Below, one piece after another: positions 3,341-56,884 of a stretch of 64,000 bases of DNA. Under the pieces are notes generated by a model that saw nothing but the letters and a program-made list of their open reading frames with translations, was not told the DNA's origin and did no database searches. The stretch covers positions 10,618,160 to 10,682,159 of the forward strand of contig NC_047064.1 of NCBI RefSeq assembly GCF_902459465.1, in the 5' to 3' direction. Each line of letters starts with the position of its first letter. Positions within the stretch are counted from its first letter, which is position 1. This DNA is from Asterias rubens. Its lineage: Eukaryota. Both the position numbers and the translations under genes were made by a program.

Positions 3341-3574
3341 GTGAGGCTTAAAGCAAATATAAAGCCAGGTTCATACTTCGCTGCAGGTTTTCGCTGCTAC
3401 ATTCGCAAGAGAGTTGAGCACAGCTCAAATCCTGCGAATTATTCATTGCAAATTTATGACCTCAACATTCTTTATCGCCTTCGCAGGAAGTATGAACCGG
3501 GCTTTATGCTTCCCACTTTAGTTTGATTTTAGATTTGTTTGCACTTGCAGGGTTTGCCCTTAAATTTGTTAATG

Positions 3575-9187: not shown

Positions 9188-9343
<156 letters not shown>

Positions 9344-9345
9344 TA

Positions 9346-9728
9346 AAGACAGTGGACACTATTGGTAATTGTCAAAGACCAGTCTTCTCACTTGGTGTAT
9401 CTCAACATATGCATGACATACATAAAAAACCTGTGGAAATTTGAGATCAATTGGTCGTTGCCCGATAATAATGAAAGAAAAAAACACCCTTGTCACACGA
9501 AGTTGTGTGCTTTATGATGCTTGATTTCGAGACCTCAAACTCTAAATCTGAGGTCTTGAAATCAAATTCGCGGAAAATTACTTCTTTCTCGAAAACTACG
9601 TCACTTCAGAGGGTGCCGTTTCTCACTATGTTTTATACCATCAACCTCTCCCCATTACTCGTCACCAAGAAAGGTTTTATGCTTATAATTATTTTGAGTA
9701 ATTACCAATAGTGTCCACTGCCTTTAAA
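9346..9728 (+). mobile_element. MITE-C (~375 bp). TIR TTTAAAG(A/G)CAGTGGACACTATTGGTAATT, with an internal hairpin gatttcgagacctca...tgaggtctcgaaatc.
   Basis: This is a full-length copy with perfect ~29-bp TIRs at both ends and tttaaa flanks. It is the most abundant family in the window. I counted at least 18 full or partial copies, at 5445-5572, 7143-7250, 11900-12238, 12838-13015, 16506-16856, 19094-19300, 21847-22218, 27483-27830, 30391-30770, 37790-38082, 40500-40625, 43675-43830, 45843-46320, 56504-56884, 60851-61200, 61200-61660, 62163-62512 and 63690-63800. Confidence 0.85.
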
Positions 9729-16505: not shown

Positions 16506-16856
16506 AAGATAGCTTAAAGACACTGGACACTGTTGGTTATTGTCAAAGACCTGTCTTCTCACTTGGTGTATCTCAACATATGCACAAAATAACAAACCTG
16601 TGAAAATTTGAGTTTGAGATAACTGTGAAAGAAAAAAACACCCTTGTCACATAAAGTTGTGTGCTTTCAGATGGTTGATTTCGAGACCTCAAATTCTAAA
16701 TCTGAGGTCTCGAAATCAAATGCGTGGAAATTTACTTTTTTTTTCTCGAAAACTACATCACTTCAGAGGGAGCCGTTTCTCACAATACCAAGTGAGGTTT
16801 TATGCTGATAATTATTTTGAGTAATTACCAATAGTGTCCACTGCCTTTAATTGGTA
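16506..16856 (+). mobile_element. MITE-C copy.
   Basis: Flanked by cTTAAag...ccTTTAAtt. Lies in AGPS intron 11. Confidence 0.8.
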
Positions 16857-31341: not shown

Positions 31342-31463
31342 TTGGTAAGGTGCGGAAACAGTGGATGCCAAAAGCCATCTCGCAGCCCGGCTTGGATACG
31401 CTACGAGCAATCAAGAAGCATCTCGACCCTCAGAATATCTTTGGGAATGATTGCCTGCTCTGA
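31342..31463 (+). CDS. AGPS: AGPS terminal coding exon. Encodes VGKVRKQWMPKAISQPGLDTLRAIKKHLDPQNIFGNDCLL*.
   Basis: Matches the human C-terminus [40 protein letters not shown]. Acceptor ttttttaaccag| and stop TGA at 31461-31463. I did not see a canonical AATAAA within ~250 bp downstream. Confidence 0.9.
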
Positions 31464-34330: not shown

Positions 34331-35939
34331 ACTGCATTACCCTAACTTTCTGAAAGTTTGTGTATACTCAGCGCCTTGAGTACCTTGTTTGGTAGATACG
34401 TGCGCTATTATAAGACTTTGATAAAAAATTAAATTGTAAAGTAATTTTGTAGTCCTTGTGGATTTTTACGAAATTATTTCCACCTCACTGAGATATACAC
34501 TCCACTGTAATAATAGTTATATTTCTTAACGACATACAAATAAATGCAGTTCAAAATTGTGTACAAAACAAACCTGAGAAATACCTTATCATTAGCAGAT
34601 TGGTTACACTTCAGACCTATGTTTCAACACCCCTCACGTAATGCATTTGTCCTAACCCTATCAATCCTTAAATCTTAATCCTTATCCTAATGTTTCCATA
34701 GGTTACAATAGGTTATTGGAACAAAGGTTTGACCATCATGTTAAACAAATTAATTGTAGCTTATAACAATAAACACAGTTCATTTAATTTCAAATAATTA
34801 AAAACTTTCAGTATCCAGTCAATAGGTTGCTAAAAATGTGACTGCCCACTAAAAGAAATGCAGTAACTGTTTTGTATGGGATTGAACATGTGAGGTATTC
34901 GGCACAGGCAGAGTTTGTCATCACACTTTTCCTAAGCCTCTGGCTTTCTTCAAATATGTTCTTGCGTACGATGTTTATATTTCTCTAACTTTTTGTTTTG
35001 ACCTGATGGTACAAAATATCTGAGGTTCCTATTTCATAGGCTAGCTATGATTCTATAAATAAGTGGACCAAAAATAGCATTTTGTTTATCGGAATCATGA
35101 TGAGAACTTGCACTAAAAATTCGAAATCTTTTATGACATTCCAAAACTTATGTAAAAGTAATTGCAATGCAACTTTAATCTTAAGCAAAAACATATTAAG
35201 TAATAATATGTCAGGAAAAGAAATGTTTGTTAACAATACAGATATTAAAACAATAAACCACAAGGTAACTGACTGGGTAAATTGTAAATTATATAGTCAT
35301 ATACCGAGGGGAAATTCAACTGATACTGTATAGCAATCCCACAGGCTTCCAGATGATCTTGAGATTGTGTTTCACCATTCCATGGGTGAACATGAACACT
35401 TCCTTGGCTGGGGTTATCAGGTGTGTCAACAGTATTACTCTCAGGTGTGTCAACAGTATTACTCTCTACACGACACTCATTTGTTCGTGTACGAATCAAT
35501 GGGATATTTCCACTAGTCAGACTATTATAGTCTATGTTGTAAAAAAAACAGCGAGTAATAGTGTTTATCAAGCATATTCTTTTAGAAGTTGTGGTAAATT
35601 CAAATGCAGAGTAAATTTAACTTAATGCATGATTAGGCCTATTCAGCGTTTGAATTTCATTGACCTCCAACACAGTTGCAAGCATGCAGCCTGGCTTTGT
35701 TTTAAGGAATGGTTTTTTTTAACTTTGTCCGTAAAAGAAAAGAGCATGCTGCCGATTTTGTACTAATGTCTACATACAATGTATCAATGTATAATCTGAT
35801 AGGTGCTACTTTTCTCCCAAAGTATTTTATGATTTAAATTATTAGTCCTAAACAATTGCATAACATCAGTGTAAACCACTGAAAGACACTCTCCCTGATA
35901 CACTAGCCCTCCAATGAATTCCTGAGATTCACACAACAC

Positions 35940-36290: not shown

Positions 36291-36769
36291 ACTAAGTGAG
36301 GGCGCCCTTTGTTAGCGGTTTAGATTCAACCATTGGAGATTTCAGTCTTGGCGAATGCTCTGTCTTTTCGCTAGATAACTAATTAGCTATTTTTTTTTTT
36401 TTTTATACTTTGAATTGGCCTTCTAATATTATGTAAATCTGTATCGAACATAGACAGTTTTCTGAATTAAATTAAGCATGCCAACCATTTTAGATTGTAT
36501 ACATAATTATTGCTGTGCATAATTTTTAATCCATACCGGAAACAAATTTTTATACCCAATATTTTTAGTTAATGTTTTTAATCAATTTGTTTTAACGATA
36601 AACAATTGTTATGACTAAAATGTGATTTTGTCTGTAGGCCTAGTGATCGACTTAGGGTTTTAATTAAAGTAGGCAACCTGTCAACTTATCACTTCAAATA
36701 ATGTATCAAAACACATCAGTTTTAGAGTTAACATAATTTTATTCAATTAAACAACATATAGACTAAAAA

Positions 36770-37290
36770 AAGGTTTTATATATAATAAAAAAAACAATTA
36801 GAACTTTATTTAAAAGCAAATATGTAACCACCATAACTTTTAATAAATTCGCGAATAATTACCATTGCACAAACATTTGCTTCAACATGGAGGGGAAAAA
36901 AATTAAACAAATTGAGTTTGAAGTTTACATCAACAAAAAACAAATAAATAAATGCAAATAAAAACAACCCATCAGTTACACGGAAATAACAAATATTTTA
37001 AAAAGTTTGAAGTTGGAAAAAGTAGTACATGTATTTAAAAAAAAAAAAAAAGTTTTGGAGTAGAACAAAAAATTAGAACTATATTCAAAAACAAATAAAT
37101 AACCACAATAACTTTTAATAAATCCGCGAACAAAAAATTAGAACTTTATCTAAAAACAAATAAATAACCACAATAACTTTAAATCAATCCGCGAATCCGC
37201 GAACTTTTAATAAATCCGCGAACAAAAAATTTGAACTGTATTTAAAAAAAAAAACATAACCACAATTACTTTTAATAAATCCGCGAATGC
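36770..37290. repeat. Tandem array of a ~57-60-bp AT-rich unit (~5 copies).
   Basis: The unit ...aaaaaattagaactttatctaaaaacaaataaataaccacaataacttttaataaatccgcgaac... repeats. The array is bracketed by the duplicated flank gaatgctYtgtcttttcg...aattagcta (36355 and 37285). Confidence 0.8.
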
Positions 37291-38439
37291 TTTGTCTTTT
37301 CGATAACCAATTAGCTAGTTTTCTGAATTTAATTATGGTGCATTGCCAAAAAGGGCGGCACAGCCACGTAACAGTTTCTTGGCACCGATTTCGCCGTTGG
37401 TGTAACCATACTGTCCCAGTGTCTAGTGGGGGTGACGCGCGGCATCCCGATAGTGAATATTCCCCGCTAGTATAACTAGAAGATCACCAGAGGCTCGTAG
37501 TGCTGTGGTGATGACCAAGCATAGATGAATCAGTGAATGAGTGCGCCATCTGTTGTTTTTTCCCGAACCCGATTTTGTGCACAGCAGAATTGAGGTGGTA
37601 GGTGTCTGCTGATTCAGAAAGAGCTAACAAGTGCATACTCACAACGAACCAGAGCGCCCACAACTTCTTCAAAGTTCCCCAGGTTTGTACTTACTTTGTG
37701 GGTAAGTATAGTCCATCCATCAAATGAATGATAATATACGTACAGTTACTTGAGTGTTTATTATCATAAAAACTTTCTTGGTATAGGGGTAGAGGTTAAT
37801 AGTATAAAACATTGTGGGAAACGGCTCCCTCTGAAGTAATGTAGTTTTTGAGAAAGAAGTAATTTTTCCACGAGTGATTTCGAGACCTCAGATTTAGAAT
37901 TTCGAGGTCTCGAAATCACGGATCTGAAAACACACAAGTGCGACAAGGGTGTTTTTTTCTTTCATCTCGCAACTTGAGCTCAAATTTTCACAGGTTTGTT
38001 ATTTTATTTATGCATACGTTGAGATACACCAACTGTGATGATTTGTCTTTGATAATTTCTAATAATGTCCAGAGTCTTTAAGGGTGAACTGGTGAACTGG
38101 AGGAGAGGTTTGGCTTAATTAAAAACATTTAATATTGTTTAACAACATGCTCAAGTTTCCTTTCCTTCATGATCAAACCATGGCCACCGACGACTCGTTT
38201 GAGACAGCTCGACCATTCCTACAGCGGTTGAGACAGCTCGACCGTTCCTACAACTCGACGAACATTTTTTTCATCTGTCAGAAAACTCGACTTATAATTA
38301 GGACCAAGACAAGTCGATGGATGGCCTCAGCACGGGGCGCGAACAGGGCTGGGAAGGGGGGCGTGTTATAGGGTTAGAAGGGTAAGGATTTACAGGTAAC
38401 TTGTGTAAACATGTCTGTAACAGAGGTAAACTGTTCAAC

Positions 38440-38560: not shown

Positions 38561-39644
38561 GACGGACGAGATGTCTGACATCAGTCTGTGGCCAGATAGT
38601 ATGCTACTGTATGCTACCTCCTCCAGTGTTGGACTTACAACTTCTACAAAAGTCAAGTGTTGAGTGTTGAACTGGATTGGTTGACAGCTGGAGGTTGTAC
38701 CCATACTTTTGCAATTCGGAGGAGAAAACTGTGTCATGGCCGAGCGGTTTTTAAAGAGCATTGAACTGAAGCTCTGCTGTATCTGATCACCATAATGTGG
38801 GTTCAATTCCCGGTCGTTAAACTTCAAATTTTCATTTATTTTTAGCAAGGACACTCCGTTGCTTTGTCCTTCAGAAGGGACGTAAATGTATAGGTCCTTA
38901 AATTGTGTTGTAAATCAACGCACGTAAAAGACACTTATCGGAAAGAGAAGGAGTACGCCCCGGTGTGTCTGGCAGGGGGACTATTTGCAATCATGAAGGC
39001 TGCACAAGAATTAGAAAGAAAAAAAGATAGAAAGAGGGTTATGCATGGTACAGGAGGAAGATGGTGGGCTAGGTTGGCTCAGTCAGTGGTTGCTGTCCCT
39101 GTCTTTCACCTCTTTGGATGCCTGGTTTGATACCAAGACCGGAGCCTTACATTGCGTTTTTCAGTCCCGTCCTAACTGTGTGGCTTTTCCCTATTGACTA
39201 ACTCAACCGATCCAAGGCAATGTGTTCCTTTTAAGTATGATGCTTATACACAAATGTAACATATATTGTGTAGATCTTTTGCTGGTAATTTTTACTTTTA
39301 AGACTGTTTGAAATGGCGCGCCAGAGTCGCGCCGAACCAAATAGAATAGTACCGATTCTAAAGTCCACCCAAACAATTTTGGGTTTTTGACAGGCGAACT
39401 TAACAAAATATTTACATAAAGGTTTGGCTCATGACAAGATCGATGTCTGAAACCATGCAAGGTTCTCGTCTCTAGAGTCATTCTGAATGACTGCAACAGT
39501 CAATCTTTCGACTTCTAGCGCATCCCGTCATTCCTATCTGTTTTAGACAATAAACTTTTCAAGTTTGAATTCAGAATATGGTTTTTGCGCGACTGTAACT
39601 TATTCCCGAATTATTACTATTATTTTATATTTTCTACTCTGAAG

Positions 39645-39826
39645 GTCGTGAGAGATTCTGTAGTCTAACGAGAGTGTATTTCAAGGAAGCATCTGCGTGT
39701 GTTATCATGTTTGATGTCACGTCTATCAAGTCATTTCAGCATGTAGTCACTTGGAAGAATTTGGTAGATTCTACAGTCTCCCTACGAGATAGGAGTCCAA
39801 TACCTTTTCTGTTACTCGGTAATAAG
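39645..39826 (+). CDS. Rab29/Rab32/Rab38-subfamily small GTPase, internal exon. Encodes (G)RERFCSLTRVYFKEASACVIMFDVTSIKSFQHVVTWKNLVDSTVSLRDRSPIPFLLLGNK.
   Basis: Matches human RAB29 QERFTSMTRLYYRDASACVIMFDVTNATTFSNSQRWKQDLDSKLTLPNGEPVPCLLLANK, which covers the G3 tail and the NKxD G4 box. Donor AAG|gtatgt is clear. The acceptor is assigned to ctctgaag|GT, and the exact 5' boundary is uncertain. Confidence 0.75.
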
Positions 39827-40667
39827 GTATGTTTGAAATAACCCTCTTTTTTTTCTCTTTGTTTTAATGTTTTTATAAGAGATCGCGTAACATAACAAGG
39901 CCATAAACGGCCACTTCACATAGGAGCCATATATAGACTGATCCGGGCTGTTAACCAAAATCAACTCTCAACTGTCACTAGTGGCATATTGCCGCCTATT
40001 CCTGGGGCTGAAACAGGGTAAACCCTATAGACTTGATGACAAGTCGTTAGGCGCTGCCTATTTGTTACAAACACACATTCTGCCCTTCATGCAACAGTTC
40101 CGTTCGATTATACATTCATGCCACCGTCACGCACACATACTGGGATCGAGGATGTGTGTACCGTCCCTGGATGTAAACTACACTGCGCTTCACAATTACT
40201 GTCTTGACTTTAAGTAGTACTGGGTATTATCCACTAGGACATGTAAGAGCCTGTCTGGTAGAGCATAATGCAACCTTCCCAACTTTTTGCAAAGTTATTT
40301 TGGTTATAGTGCCTTGCTCAAGGGCACAAGTGCCATGACCAGGATTCGAACCCACACCCTGCTACTGACAGCGTCAGAGCTTGCCAGGGGACCTACACCG
40401 CTTGGATGGGCATGACAAGTCGCATCATTTGTTCTTTAAAATGTGAGACATTGTGGTTGATTTATTTTATTTTCTTTTTCAAATCTTAATTTTGTTCTTT
40501 CATTTTTTTTTCTTGGAACTTCGATGACCAATTGATCCCATTTTTCACAGGTTTCTTATTTTATGCATTTGTTGGGATGCACCCAGTGAGAAAAGTGGTT
40601 TTTGACAATATTGTTACCAAAAGTATACCCGGCCTGCCTTTAGGATATTGATTTAGTCTAATGATAT

Positions 40668-40832
40668 TTATGTTCGAATCCCACCCGAGTAATATCCCTG
40701 TGATATTTGTTCATAGGACTCGGGAAAGTGCCGAGTATAAAGTGCTAACACACATTGGTGTATGGGTAAAAACCAAAAAATTAATATTCTTTATCGCCGA
40801 TGCAAATTTAACATCTATTAGATATTTATGTT
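40668..40832 (+). mobile_element. SINE-A copy ending ~25 bp upstream of the Rab-like exon acceptor.
   Basis: Carries the same body and the tail ...ccaaaaaattaatattctttatcgccgatgcaaatttaacatctatta. Confidence 0.7.
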
Positions 40833-40856
40833 GGTATTATTTCATCATTTATTTAG

Positions 40857-40978
40857 TCTGATCTGGACGAACATAAGGTTTCGGATGAAGAGATTAAAGC
40901 AATGTCTGAAGATCATAACTTTGTTGGCTGGAGCAAGATATCAGTCAAAGATAACTACAATCTTGAAGAATCCATGAT
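40857..40978 (+). CDS. Rab29-like GTPase exon. Encodes SDLDEHKVSDEEIKAMSEDHNFVGWSKISVKDNYNLEESMM.
   Basis: Matches human RAB29 CDLSPWAVSRDQIDRFSKENGFTGWTETSVKENKNINEAMRVLIEKMM. Acceptor catttatttag| and donor GAT|gtaagt. A SINE copy ends ~25 bp upstream of this acceptor. Confidence 0.8.
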
Positions 40979-42017
40979 GTAAGTATGTCATAGGATTAAC
41001 AATGGATGGGTCATTTTTAAGCCTTGGACCCTTTCTTTCGTTTGCGGCCACTCGGATAGTCAACATGACTGGCTTTGGTGTAAGTCTACCGTGCGGTACC
41101 ACCTGGACTTATATTTGATGTATAAGCTTTACAGCTTTGTCGCGCTAGGTTTACAGTGCGGAGCTGTACCCATTGTACTTTTATAGTGGCCCTGATAAGT
41201 TACCATGGCTGCGTGGAAGTCTACTGCGACCTCTTTCGGCCTGTTAGTTTTACATCACGGTCGCGGTAAATTGACAGGGAGGTAAGTAACCCATGCGTCC
41301 CCATTGGATTGAATTTTGTCATTTAACAGAAAAGTCGCAGTACTACAAAAGAAATCCCATTGGAACACCGCTTTAGAATTTTATCTAAATTCAAAGTTAT
41401 TCGAGTGAAGAATGTGTTAATGGCTTTGTTAGGTGGAGACCAGTCAAGCTTCATTCAGACAGAAAACAAGTATATAATGTGCAAAGCCACAATCATAGGT
41501 ACACATTTGGGGGGGCGTGGAACGCAATCATTGTACCAGTTAGTATCAGTGCGTCATCTATTAATTTGTACATGCGTGTACACACAACCCATCATACACC
41601 AAGCAGAATGTTTTGAAGTTTTTGAAATGTACAATCTTCGTAAAAAAATTCATTACAGAGCAGATTGTCACAATTGTCTATAATTGTTTTTAAAAAATCA
41701 CTTTTTAACAAAAGGGAATTTATGAATGGAAATATTAGGGTGGTGACTCGTTCTTAAACGGCCGTTTAAACATTGCAGGGTTAAGGGCGTTTCTGCTCGG
41801 GCCTTTATCACACGGCCAAGACCCTGCTGGTTAGAAACAACCGTTTAAGAATGCTGAGTCACCACTCTTTTATTCCCTTATTTAAGTGTTTGGGTAAAAC
41901 CAGTCGAAATGTCAAGAGAAACCAAACAACTTTTGTCCGAGAGACAACCTCTTTAAAAATATGAATAAACATGATGTAGCCGGAAGACTTAACAGATGAA
42001 TTTTACTGTATTGGCAG

Positions 42018-42132
42018 GCTCTTGGTCGAGGAGGTTGTAGCGAGGCTTCAGCCCAGAGTTGCAGAGTTTACTATCGATGACGGGAGGATTAAACTGCCTC
42101 ATACTTACAACAAACAAAGCAAGTGTTGGTAG
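42018..42132 (+). CDS. Rab29-like GTPase apparent terminal exon. Encodes (M)LLVEEVVARLQPRVAEFTIDDGRIKLPHTYNKQSKCW*.
   Basis: Acceptor ttggcag| and in-frame TAG at 42130-42132. It continues the hypervariable tail after ...EESMM. The predicted end SKCW* lacks a CC/CXC prenylation motif (see findings). Confidence 0.6.
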
Positions 42133-42989
42133 ATTTTTTAATGATAAATAATAACTCAAGGGCCCGATTTCATAGCTGCAGAGAATATGCTTAGAAGTTG
42201 TCTGCTAAACAGAAATGAGCAGGATACCACATTCTCAAATTTTACAGTAACATCATGGCAGTTTGAATGGTAACCTTATTCTGGTAAGCATAATTTTGTT
42301 GTGCTTAGCTACTTTTTGTGCGTAAGCAGCTCTAGGAAATTGGGTCCAGGTAATTATGCAATAAATTTATACTTAACAAAGTTGTGTCTCCATTTTGTGG
42401 TAACTCACTGGCTGTTTAAGTTCTTGCAACTTTGAACAAAGTGAGTTATTTCTTATGTGTTTGTGGTGCATTTTACTGAAAAACTGCGGTCATAATTTTT
42501 TGCGTGAGCACAAAATCTTGCAAAAAGCAAACATGTTACTGGTCCAAATACCATGTAATGTATCAGGGAACGATTTTGTCCATCAATTTTGCGTACCAAG
42601 AATATTAGACTGAACTTATTTCGAGCACACTGATTTGTAAATTTGAGTTGCAAATCCTGATTTTTGAGTAGCAATTGAAACATTTGGTGTTGCTTTTGCT
42701 CTGCTATACAAAGTAAATCGGCCACTTTGTATCAGATACTCTTTGTGACTGGTTGATTGTTGCTGGGCAGTTACCGTATGCCTGAAAAATGAGTATTTGA
42801 AGTGACAGAAACAGTTCTTCAAAGTTTGTCTATCAAAGCAGTCTTAAAGGCACGGGATGGACACCTTTCATTCATTCATTCAGCCGATGCGATTCATTCA
42901 TTGGTCCTCCATTACTGTACGCAGCTCTTCCCAACGCAGTCTAAGAGTCCCTGCACAAGGTGTCCTTGCACAAGGTGGTCTGCCCCAGG

Positions 42990-43680
42990 AACAGTGACCT
43001 TGAGTAGGGGCCCATAGCACAAGCTAGCTCACTACCAGCTCTGCATGTCTAAGACAGTGACCTGCTTATCTCAGTCTTCTTGCCCTAATCCTGGTGCCAA
43101 CTCTCGGTAGGCCACCATAGAGTTCCAGGTTTGTGACATGCCTCTCCCAATGAATCTGTTTAACACAACGAAGCATTCTTGTATAGCAGCGATCCAGTCT
43201 CTTCTCTAGACGACTGGCCAGTGTCCAGGACTCACATCCGTACGGCAGTACTGATTCCACAGTGGCAGTAAAGAACTTCACCTTCAGGGACTGGGACATC
43301 TGACTTAACCATAATGTTCTTCATGGAGTCGAGTTCCTTTTAGGCAAGAGTGATACGACATTTCACATCTTTCTCGGTGTCATTAACCCACGAGCCCAAG
43401 TATTTGAAATCTGTTACCGAGTTCAGCTCAGAACTGATGGTTGTCTTTTAGGGAGTGGCAGTGGTCTGTTAAATATCATGTACTTTGTCTTCCTGGTGTT
43501 GAGAAATAGCCCCACTCTGGCACATTCGGTCTCTGTTCTTTGCAGAATCAGCTGAGCTTGCTCAATCTCATCAGATATCAGAACGATGTCATCTGCAAAA
43601 TCAAGGTCTGTGATCATGACAGGAGCCACTCGTCTGCTCCTCCTATCAACTGTTCCTCCACTTCTTCCTGGCAAGGATAA
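42990..43680 (-). mobile_element. Degenerate non-LTR retrotransposon reverse-transcriptase fragment.
   Basis: Minus ORF 43423-43674 translates to ...MITDLDFADDIVLISDEIEQAQ...TETECARVGLFLNTRKTKYM (the FADD RT motif). Minus ORF 43066-43299 translates to ...FFTATVESVLPYGCESWTL...LDRCYTRMLRCVKQIHWERHVTN.EL (RT thumb/C-terminal region). The frames are shifted relative to each other, so this is a decayed copy. Confidence 0.8.
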
Positions 43681-44905
43681 TTGTCAAAGACCAGTCTTCT
43701 CAATTGGTGTATCTTTCCGATGCTTGATTCCGAGGTCTCGAAATCAAATTCGTGGAAAATTACTTCTTTCTCAAAAACTATATGTTACTTCAGAGGGAAT
43801 CTTTTCTCACATTTTTGTAGTCTATCAAGTAAGGTTTTATGCTAAAAAAAAATTGATGGGAGACTTTTGGGCGGTCCTTTTTAATAGTTCTCGCCAGTAC
43901 GGGTACAACAGTGAGCATCTGTGTGCACACTTATAGACATTAAAAAGGACAGTTATGTCTGCAGCTGCCAACGTCTCAAAAGTTTCGCATTATTTGTACA
44001 TACAACGTTGTGTGTAACTTGTAAAAATTTAATTTAAACAATACCGCCTTACTTTTGTTTACATAGAGTGACCCTGAGAATTTCAGGCACAACATTTGGA
44101 AATTATTGAATTTGTACCATTTCCCAAAAGCAAAAATGTGATGAAAATCATTCAGAGATGGAAATCATCTTTACTTGTATAATGGTACATGTTCATGTTT
44201 TGTTCTGTCGAGCTGTAAACAATTTGTGATACAGAAAGTTTAGGCTCTGTGTCTCTTAAATCCGCATCTTCAATACTCCACTGATTTATTTTGTCTTCTT
44301 CTGTTTTAGAGAAGAACCTTTATATGAGCTGAAAGCCTGGTTCATACTTCCTGCGAATGCGAAGCGAAGTTCCAATGAATTTGACGTCACAACTCTGTTT
44401 ATGCTGCAAACATTCGCAAGAGTCAAGCACAGCTCAACTCTGCGAATAATTCGTTGCAAATTTCTGATGTCAACATTCGCATTCGCATAAAGTATGAACC
44501 AGAAAACTGTATTAAAGCAGTTCTTTAAAATAAATTAGGTAAATCCATATAGATGCTACTCTCTGACATTTCCATTTATACTGATAAATATAATAAACAA
44601 TATTGGTAACTAAATCTAACAATGCATATAAACATATAATTGTATAGGAAAACCCCACTCTATGAATGTAGGAGTAACTAAGGCAGCTTTTAAAAAACAG
44701 TATAAAAACTTATTTTAGTTTGATTTTGAAAGGAGCTGCCCTTACACAGTCCGCTCTATATAAAGTTTTATCAATAAGTATCGATATAGAACAATAGTAT
44801 TGATGTAAAATTTAAAATTATTTCTTCAATAATCTTGTATAAAATGGTATTGCTGTTGAAATAATGCCACTGATTCACTAAATATCAGTTATTTGGTTTG
44901 ACCTT

Positions 44906-46500: not shown

Positions 46501-47041
46501 CTAGGAAACGGTACAAAAAAATATTGATATTTTAAGATTTCATATTTATGTATAACAAACAAAGAATCTTATCACTCTAAAAACTTTGGGCCAGAATTGT
46601 CCCCAGGGGTCTGAACCCAAATCTGTGCCAAACTGACCTAAACCTGTGTCAAACTGACTTATAACCCGAAAAAGAACTTTAGAGTAGTTGCTTAGTAAAG
46701 TGTTATTTTACGTCACTATACAAATCACTATTGTTACACCGACAATTGTTCTTTACAATGAATTTTAATGCTTTGTGAAATGGAGCCCTGCTTTTTCTTA
46801 GAGTAGGAAAAGGCCCAATTTTGAAAATGACAAAACAAAAAATAATAAAGGAGAACAAACCACTGGTGCTTCATAAGCTTTATCCAAATATATTTACCAG
46901 AAACAAACAGGTTGAAATAGAAATTGCAGTATATGCAAATTTTAGCTGATTAATTGTACATTTTCCAACACAAAAGGAACATGAATTGATGAAATTCTTA
47001 TTCCTGAAAACTATTTGATCGCAGTAAAAAAAATGACTTAC

Positions 47042-47109
47042 TTTGGCAGCCCAGTTGACCAGCCATGTTGGTATCATTCCTTTAGGGTTGTCATAGTAAT
47101 GCATGAACG
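47042..47109 (-). CDS. PCTP: PCTP-like exon 5. Encodes AFMHYYDNPKGMIPTWLVNWAAK.
   Basis: Matches human VFMYYFDNPGGQIPSWLINWAAK, the START-domain C-terminal helix region. Acceptor tatctgtag| and donor AAA|gtaagt. Confidence 0.9.
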
Positions 47110-47345
47110 CTACAGATATCAAAGACAATATTGTTAATACAAAGAATTTCAAAAACTTGCAATCGCCCCCGAATGTTGAAATTCCAGTCACATGTTCATT
47201 TCTTCAGGTGAAGTTTACACTAGAAAGCATGTGTTAAATTTAAAAAAACAGAACACGTTTAATTGTTCTGTTTCTTAAAAACTGTTTCTTTTTTTACTTG
47301 GCCTAATGTCATATGCAAAGGGTCTGATCTAACCTATTATATTAC

Positions 47346-56503: not shown

Positions 56504-56884
56504 AGTTGAAGGCAGTGGACACTATTGGTAATTACTCAAAATAACTATTAGCATAAAACCTTTATTGATTACGAGTAATCGGGAGAGGTTGATGGTATAA
56601 AACATTGTGAGAAACGGCTCCCTCAGTAGTTTTTGAGAAAGAAGCAATTTTCCACGAATTTGATTTTGAGACCTCAAGTTTAGAATTTGAGGTCTCGAAA
56701 TCAAGCAGTTGAAAGCACACAACTTCGTGTGACAAGGGTGGTTCTTCTTTCATTGTTATCTCGCGAGTTCGATGACCGATTAACCTCAAATTTTCACAGG
56801 TTTGTTATTTTATGCATATGTTGAGATACACCAACTGTGAAGGCTAGTCTTTGACAAGTACCAATATTGTCCACTGCCTTTAAA
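56504..56884 (-). mobile_element. MITE-C copy.
   Basis: Lies in PCTP intron 1. Confidence 0.8.

Follow-up and report, generated by a model that had tools for sequence, protein, structure and literature searches.

Our analysis of a 64-kb stretch of Asterias rubens DNA (the window) points to a locus that is most likely a dispersed, 5'-truncated copy of the Rab-7L1 (RAB29)-like gene of this starfish, which keeps its introns and is most likely decaying as an unprocessed pseudogene or gene fragment. The locus is homologous to that gene, is truncated, carries several lesions, and has evolved at an accelerated rate, and it has probably lost its function. In the scenario that we favor, the segment that was copied or retained begins within the intron that follows the codons for ...LWDIAG and includes the remainder of the gene, whereas the exon(s) coding for P-loop, switch I, interswitch strands, and DIAG are absent. 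The replacement of the catalytic Gln by Arg, the alteration of several family-invariant residues, the deletion of five codons, and the conversion of CCWIF to CW-stop would be later lesions. In the RefSeq model, this remnant is preceded by two unrelated exons and followed by one small further exon, giving a chimeric open reading frame of 197 amino acids.

Retained exons and their intact paralog

Three Rab exons, all with canonical AG/GT borders (Table 1), encode a Rab-7L1 (RAB29)-like protein from the Gly of DxxGQ onward. These are the three 3' exons that the initial annotation had ascribed to a Rab29/32/38-like GTPase, and both their exact coordinates and the family assignment proved right. 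Their joint translation, GRERFCSL...KQSKCW, is a 100% match to the A. rubens "ras-related protein Rab-7L1-like" (P0001, 197 aa). In tblastn searches, the three exons were found with E-values of 1.5e-37, 7.9e-23, and 1.2e-17 when P0001 was the query and of 1.9e-27, 2.1e-20, and 4.9e-13 when the intact paralog P0002 was used. The Pfam Ras profile matches P0001 only at profile positions 57 to 160 of 162 (E=1.4e-18), compared to positions 1 to 160 in P0002.

Table 1. Features of the Rab29-like locus (positions in the window)
Feature	Position	Strand	Description	Evidence
RefSeq first coding exon	35382..35444	(+)	MGEHEHFLGWGYQVCQQYYSQ; unrelated to Rab	no Pfam match
RefSeq second coding exon	37602..37701	(+)	VSADSERANKCILTTNQSAHNFFKVPQVCTYFV + G; unrelated to Rab; ends in phase 1	
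Intron upstream of first Rab exon	39231..39644	(+)	homologous to parent-type intron	blastn
Rab exon	39645..39826	(+)	encodes (G)RERFCSLTRVYFKEASACVIMFDVT...PFLLLGNK; switch II, RabF3-5-like motifs, start of NKxD	
Arg replacing catalytic Gln	39647..39649	(+)	codon CGT, within the 39645..39826 exon	
Rab exon	40857..40978	(+)	encodes SDLDEHK...FVGWSKISVKDNYNLEESM(M); rest of NKSD (G4), SVK (G5)	tblastn, splicing
Last Rab-derived exon	42018..42132	(+)	encodes LLVEEVVARLQPR...HTYNKQSKCW; stop TAG at 42130..42132	
RefSeq alternative terminal coding exon	42925..42944	(+)	(S)LPNAV + TAA; bypasses TAG; tail without Cys	

The best solved-structure matches to the remnant are human Rab-7L1/RAB29 (8fo2_B, 3e-28; 6hh2_A), followed by Rab32 and Rab38, and the alignment with RAB29 begins at G66 and runs to approximately residue 174. 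The copy has the signatures ASACVIMFDVT and SVK in common with human RAB29/RAB7L1 (6hh2, 8fo2), but identity is 41%, and the copy has neither an equivalent of residues 1 to 65 nor the C-terminal CC. The G4 motif NKxD and the SAK-like G5 motif are present as GNKSD and SVK, as in P0002, P0003, and human RAB29, and the RabF3-5 region is kept (RFCSLT, VYFKEA, IMFDVT). Diekmann et al. 2011 (PMC3192815) require at least one RabF motif of a Rab; in the present case, the retained region shows Rab descent, not function. By descent, the remnant is a Rab29 subfamily sequence, since it is nearest to RAB29, then to RAB32/RAB38, and has the intron after WDIAG in common.

The intact paralog of A. rubens, P0002 (210 aa), is a complete Rab-7L1-like GTPase that begins with MNEKLFKVIIVGDSRVGKT, contains WDIAGQERF, and ends in KCCWIF. 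The window copy is 80 to 83% identical to it, with 88% identity between the second Rab exon and P0002 residues 125 to 165. With P0002 and Patiria miniata P0003 as the reference, identity is 83% over 139 shared residues, and the exon borders and the layout of the hypervariable tail are the same, whereas the copy lacks residues 1 to 63, has Arg for Gln, 19 replacements, and a five-residue deletion, and ends in CW-stop instead of CCWIF-stop. Copy and intact gene appear to lie on different chromosome-sized sequences, P0001 being seen on one of 22.9 Mb and P0002 on another of 25.7 Mb.

Parent-type DNA was available only in the form of two short marine-metagenome ENA contigs, L001 and L002, which are 99% identical to each other; their exon translation is identical to P0002 residues 65 to 124. 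A scan of JGI metagenomes with the exon-3 pattern yielded no DNA of the parent locus. In blastn, L001 and L002 aligned with positions 39231 to 39927 of the window (E=1e-131), including 414 nt of upstream and 100 nt of downstream intron. The exon itself is 85% identical to L001 at the nucleotide level, with acceptor and donor common to both, and the intron mismatch is p=0.188 (~81% identity; JC 0.216, both lineages together). Since the introns are retained and can be aligned, the duplication took place at the DNA level and did not produce a retrocopy. Two introns occupy the positions that they have in the parent, and homology to parent-type DNA continues into the flanking intron, which sets the copy apart from a processed pseudogene, a type defined by the absence of introns, a poly(A) tail, and a flanking target-site duplication. 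The upstream homology stops at repeat insertions and not at a clean breakpoint, and the breakpoint was not found; tRNA-derived elements were sought in 31-45 kb, and there were none. The duplication is far younger than the split of Asterias and Patiria.

Loss of the 5' half, the catalytic glutamine, and the prenylation motif

Residues 1 to 63 of the intact paralog, from the P-loop to DIAG, are without counterpart in the window copy. The initial annotation had failed to locate this half in 31.5-39.6 kb, and the same result was now obtained across the 64 kb by motif scan, tblastn, and profile. A six-frame motif scan of the window found neither a P-loop GxxxxGK[ST] nor DxxGQ in a Rab context, and tblastn of the window with P0002, P0003, and P0005 gave no match for residues 1 to 63 at E≤5. 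Human RAB29 and RAB32 probes did not reveal a relic of a 5' exon in the window either, and neither the switch I Thr of G2 nor RabF1 (IGVDF) turned up in the window by tblastn or in searches with an N-terminal exon profile. This profile was built from 12 N-terminal exons and run with filters off against 4,483 six-frame pieces, with a best E-value of only 0.94. The piece concerned (36767-36958), which is the sole same-strand candidate for a 5' exon, lies in an A-rich tandem repeat and was attributed to chance, as was RISLWAITGNVRF followed by a stop on the minus strand (63088-63050, E=3.6), where flanking similarity is lacking.

An AGPS-like gene with at least 20 exons extends on the same strand from 2294 to 31460, as mapped with a human AGPS sequence as the probe; when the AGPS of A. 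rubens was sought among proteins, all that came up were fragments belonging to other species. Since this gene ends at ~31.46 kb, only 31.5-39.6 kb is left for Rab 5' exons. In the read-through ORFs of distant species (P0012-P0020), the first coding exon stops exactly at WDIAG. The intron after WDIAG is thus shared by distant species and L001, which indicates that its position is old and that all sequence upstream of it is missing here. A search for parent-type 5' exon DNA returned only distant species.

Of the G3 motif DxxGQ, only the Gly is left, split over the new splice junction. The acceptor reads ...tttgaag/GT CAG GAG in parent-type L001 and ...ctctgaag/GT CGT GAG in the window, and the parent-type DNA continues CAG GAG AGG TTT (QERF), compared to CGT GAG AGA TTC (RERF) in the window. 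The two acceptors are homologous, and therefore, the acceptor chosen in the initial annotation was right and the Arg that it had read in place of the catalytic Gln is real.

At the C-terminus, the intact paralogs end in KQSKCCWIF-stop (A. rubens P0002) and KQSKCCWLL-stop (Patiria P0003). The window sequence AGC AAG TGT TGG TAG ATT TTT TAA reads S K C W stop I F stop and is colinear with SKCCWIF-stop; the old stop TAA persists at 42139-42141, and the sole stop change is Trp to stop, three codons upstream of it. A CCXXX prenylation motif was thus once encoded in this same exon and has been destroyed by Cys to Trp and Trp to stop. The ending with a single Cys and without a Rab motif (...KQSKCW-stop), which had been noticed before, was borne out, whereas the proposal that a weak donor at 42128/42129 leads into a micro-exon that restores CC fails: the ancestral CCWIF lay in the same exon and was point-mutated, and the colinear alignment makes a micro-exon unnecessary. 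Furthermore, this donor joined to the acceptor of the alternative terminal exon gives KCC plus 23 residues, so that KCC is not a C-terminal motif. A prenylatable Cys motif (CC, CXC, CCXX, or CCXXX) is absent both from the colinear ending KCW-stop and from the RefSeq splice form KSLPNAV-stop.

A G domain without β1-α1-β2-β3 lacks the sites for phosphate and Mg2+ as well as switch I and DxxG. Since these elements are missing, neither binding nor hydrolysis of GTP is possible for the product, and since there is no C-terminal Cys pair, it cannot be geranylgeranylated. Of the defining Rab features tested, four are absent, namely G1, G2/RabF1, the Gln of G3, and the motif for prenylation, and a protein of this sequence would not be able to cycle as a Rab.

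The RefSeq model, constraint, and alternative readings

RefSeq presents the locus as protein-coding; the 197-aa model starts with 54 residues of unrelated sequence, contains no P-loop, and has a tail without Cys. Splicing of six window exons, with the last Rab exon cut at 42124, reproduces P0001 in 196 of its 197 residues. The mismatch is at residue 54, which is V (GTG) in the window and E in P0001; a canonical splice giving E54 was sought in the window and not found, and therefore, a V/E polymorphism is likely. The donor of the first coding exon sits inside a perfect 24-bp tandem duplication (35417-35466), the second coding exon gives the first base of the Gly codon that is completed by the GT at 39645, and the donor for the alternative terminal exon is at 42124/42125, giving ...KSLPNAV-stop. 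Predicted peptides of the RefSeq form include MGEHEHFLGWGYQ... and ...KQSKSLPNAV. No family match was found for the 54 N-terminal residues in Pfam, and a literature search returned nothing on this locus. We infer that the locus is transcribed from two features of the RefSeq model, since its donor precedes an available stop codon by 5 nt and since its upstream exons could not be predicted from homology alone.

The amino acid sequence of the copy has changed rapidly. With Patiria as the outgroup, 19 amino acid changes fall on the window lineage versus 3 on the parent lineage (Tajima test, chi2=11.6, p=6e-4); the window copy is 82.7% identical to the parent, and the parent is 83.5% identical to its Patiria ortholog. 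Changes hit 6 of 45 family-invariant sites (13%) versus 18 of 94 variable ones (19%; p=0.48), and the six residues replaced are invariant from starfish to human (Q to R, Y to F, D to L, K to T, V to I, and C to F). In exon 3 (the counterpart of 39645-39826), to which the comparison with parent-type DNA is confined for dN/dS as well as for breakpoints, every polarisable replacement is on the copy lineage (dN 0.11), the pairwise dS is 0.39, and the pairwise dN/dS is 0.29. The lineage-specific omega of the copy is estimated at ~0.7-1.1 from 60 codons and a metagenomic parent-type sequence, which makes for a weak rate test. In addition, a 15-nt in-frame deletion has removed five codons (GKGSI) from the last Rab exon relative to the parent. 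Amino acid constraint thus appears to be relaxed on the copy.

The 414-nt frame over the three exons contains no frameshift and no internal stop. In the flanking intron, 491 nt could be aligned, and these show 16 indel events. In a neutral simulation at intron rates, the probability of an intact frame was 0.0002 to 0.012, an estimate that is fragile since the intron is AT-rich, L001 is of metagenomic origin, and the frame would be unremarkable if the indel:substitution ratio were lower. The intact frame is a hint that the ORF is under some selection or that the copy existed for a time as a complete gene before it was truncated.

The first of these options corresponds to a living chimeric gene for a P-loop-less protein, in which 54 new residues precede a Rab29-like G domain reduced to its C-terminal two-thirds and which is translated and maintained by selection for a nucleotide-independent role. 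We consider this doubtful. The substitution pattern looks unconstrained at the amino acid level, and the N-terminal exon has a perfect, hence recent, 24-bp duplication, although frame and splice sites are intact despite ~19% mismatch and many indels in the adjoining intron, the single indel within the exons preserves the frame, the phase at the end of the new exon 2 is the one that completes the Gly codon, and RefSeq annotates the locus as coding. The argument from the indel rate, in turn, rests on an AT-rich intron. From general knowledge of G domains, an independent fold is unlikely with half of the Rossmann-like core (β1-β3 and α1) gone, and AlphaFold, run on P0001 with four homologs and thus a shallow alignment that makes this weak evidence, gave no confident structure at residues 1 to 61 (pLDDT <50), only 55 to 78 over the Rab remnant, and a mean of 50. 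Such a chimera might, for instance, serve as a soluble decoy that occupies a partner of the α3-α5 face or of the hypervariable tail. A starfish lineage-specific "half-Rab", consisting of the new 54-residue N-terminus and switch II to α5, without a lipid anchor and with a frame under selection, that would work independently of nucleotide, perhaps by competing in soluble form for a protein that binds Rab29, is imaginable but decidedly improbable.

According to the second option, a once-complete second Rab29-like paralog was functional for a time, lost its 5' exon(s) recently by deletion or rearrangement, and decayed afterwards. This would reconcile the frameshift-free frame with the present lesions, and upstream of the first retained exon, homology in the intron continues for 414 nt or more until it ends at repeat insertions. 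We nevertheless regard it as unlikely: the replacement rate of exon 3 on the copy lineage is close to the intron rate and invariant sites were freely changed, which fits relaxation through most of the history of the copy, and no relic of a 5' exon is detectable in 31.5-39.6 kb.

A complete but unusual Rab, whose P-loop exons were beyond the window or misassembled and whose CC was restored by a terminal micro-exon, is largely refuted and highly improbable, since 2.3-31.5 kb is filled by the same-strand AGPS-like gene, the sequence with which the RefSeq model begins at 35382 is not that of a Rab, the ancestral CC was mutated within the same exon, Arg stands at the Gln position, and six family-invariant residues are changed, against which there are only the finite window and a hypothetical acceptor at 43552 that would yield KCC-stop with the donor at 42128.

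The truncated duplicate remains our preferred reading. Introns are kept, the copy is incomplete, and the rate and invariant-site tests indicate a loss of constraint, as in an unprocessed duplicated pseudogene. The initial annotation had set a 5'-truncated pseudogene copy against an unusual functional Rab, and truncation, lesions, and rate favor the former.

Relation to known systems and significance

The copy resembles unprocessed pseudogenes and partial duplicates in that introns are kept, one end is truncated, the rate is higher, catalytic and targeting motifs are lost, and unrelated exons are included in the model. In contrast to these, it is so far without a frameshift or internal stop. 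Known pseudoGTPases retain the whole G-domain fold. The loss of nucleotide-binding motifs is common to pseudoGTPases and the window copy, but the copy additionally lacks the first third of the fold.

As a type of object, the locus is ordinary, and its value lies mainly in a caveat for annotation and in the question of why the frame is still intact. If the intact frame reflects selection, the locus would be a rare case of the reuse of a G-domain fragment, which is not favored by the present evidence. It is also an example, clean and datable, of a partial duplication whose product has been combined with unrelated exons in a gene model. The RefSeq "ras-related protein Rab-7L1-like" (197 aa) has neither the half that binds nucleotide nor the catalytic Gln nor a site for prenylation and should be excluded from inventories of starfish Rabs and from comparisons of the RAB29/LRRK2 pathway.

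Upstream exons of the RefSeq model

The donor of the first exon in the RefSeq model of the Rab fragment locus falls within a 24-bp tandem duplication, one copy of which is coding (QVCQQYYSQ) while the GT donor comes from the next; the boundary of this exon is probably very young. At residue 54, the codon in the window (37697-37699) is GTG and encodes Val, versus Glu in the 197-aa RefSeq protein P0001. No alternative canonical splice gives Glu at this residue, and therefore, the mismatch probably reflects a polymorphism or a difference between assembly versions.

Features of the window in and around the Rab fragment locus
Feature	Position	Strand	Remarks
AGPS-like (alkyl-dihydroxyacetonephosphate synthase) gene	2294-31460	+	20 or more coding exons; human AGPS served as the mapping probe
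Perfect 24-bp tandem duplication	35417-35466		TCAGGTGTGTCAACAGTATTACTC, 2.1 copies
Interspersed repeat, ~330 bp	37758-38081		more than 12 other copies, e.g., 9343-9688, 16513-16786, and 56546-56883
Exon-like ORF, phosphatidylcholine transfer protein-like (START-domain protein)	46880-47191	-	PDB 1ln1_A, E = 7e-7
ORF of 246 aa	57825-58565	+	

Repeats and the metagenome contigs

The ~330-bp interspersed repeat is present in high copy number across the window, with one copy located 57 nt downstream of exon 2 of the RefSeq model and a further piece in an intron of the Rab fragment (40490-40628). The metagenome contigs L001 (1-998) and L002 (1-611), which originate from the ENA SOLA22 marine metagenomes (seawater), are starfish nuclear DNA with an intact-type Rab-7L1-like exon. 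Intron homology to L001 stops exactly at the ends of other repeats (window 39196-39231), and segment 32-175 of L001 is a repeat with copies at window positions 44332-44478 and 3411-3506. The 246-aa ORF had no Pfam match at E ≤ 0.01; we take it to resemble the C-terminal portion of a LINE ORF2.

Neighboring genes and the intact gene in Patiria miniata

The upstream neighbor of the Rab fragment is the AGPS-like gene, which is encoded on the same strand and terminates in ...NIFGNDCLL near position 31460; PF02913 is present in fragments related to this gene. The START-domain-like ORF probably represents the downstream neighbor gene. In another starfish, Patiria miniata, isoform X1 of the intact gene (P0004) has 12 additional residues precisely at the WDIAG/GQERF junction, and therefore, the intact gene of this species is implied to have an alternative mini-exon within switch II.
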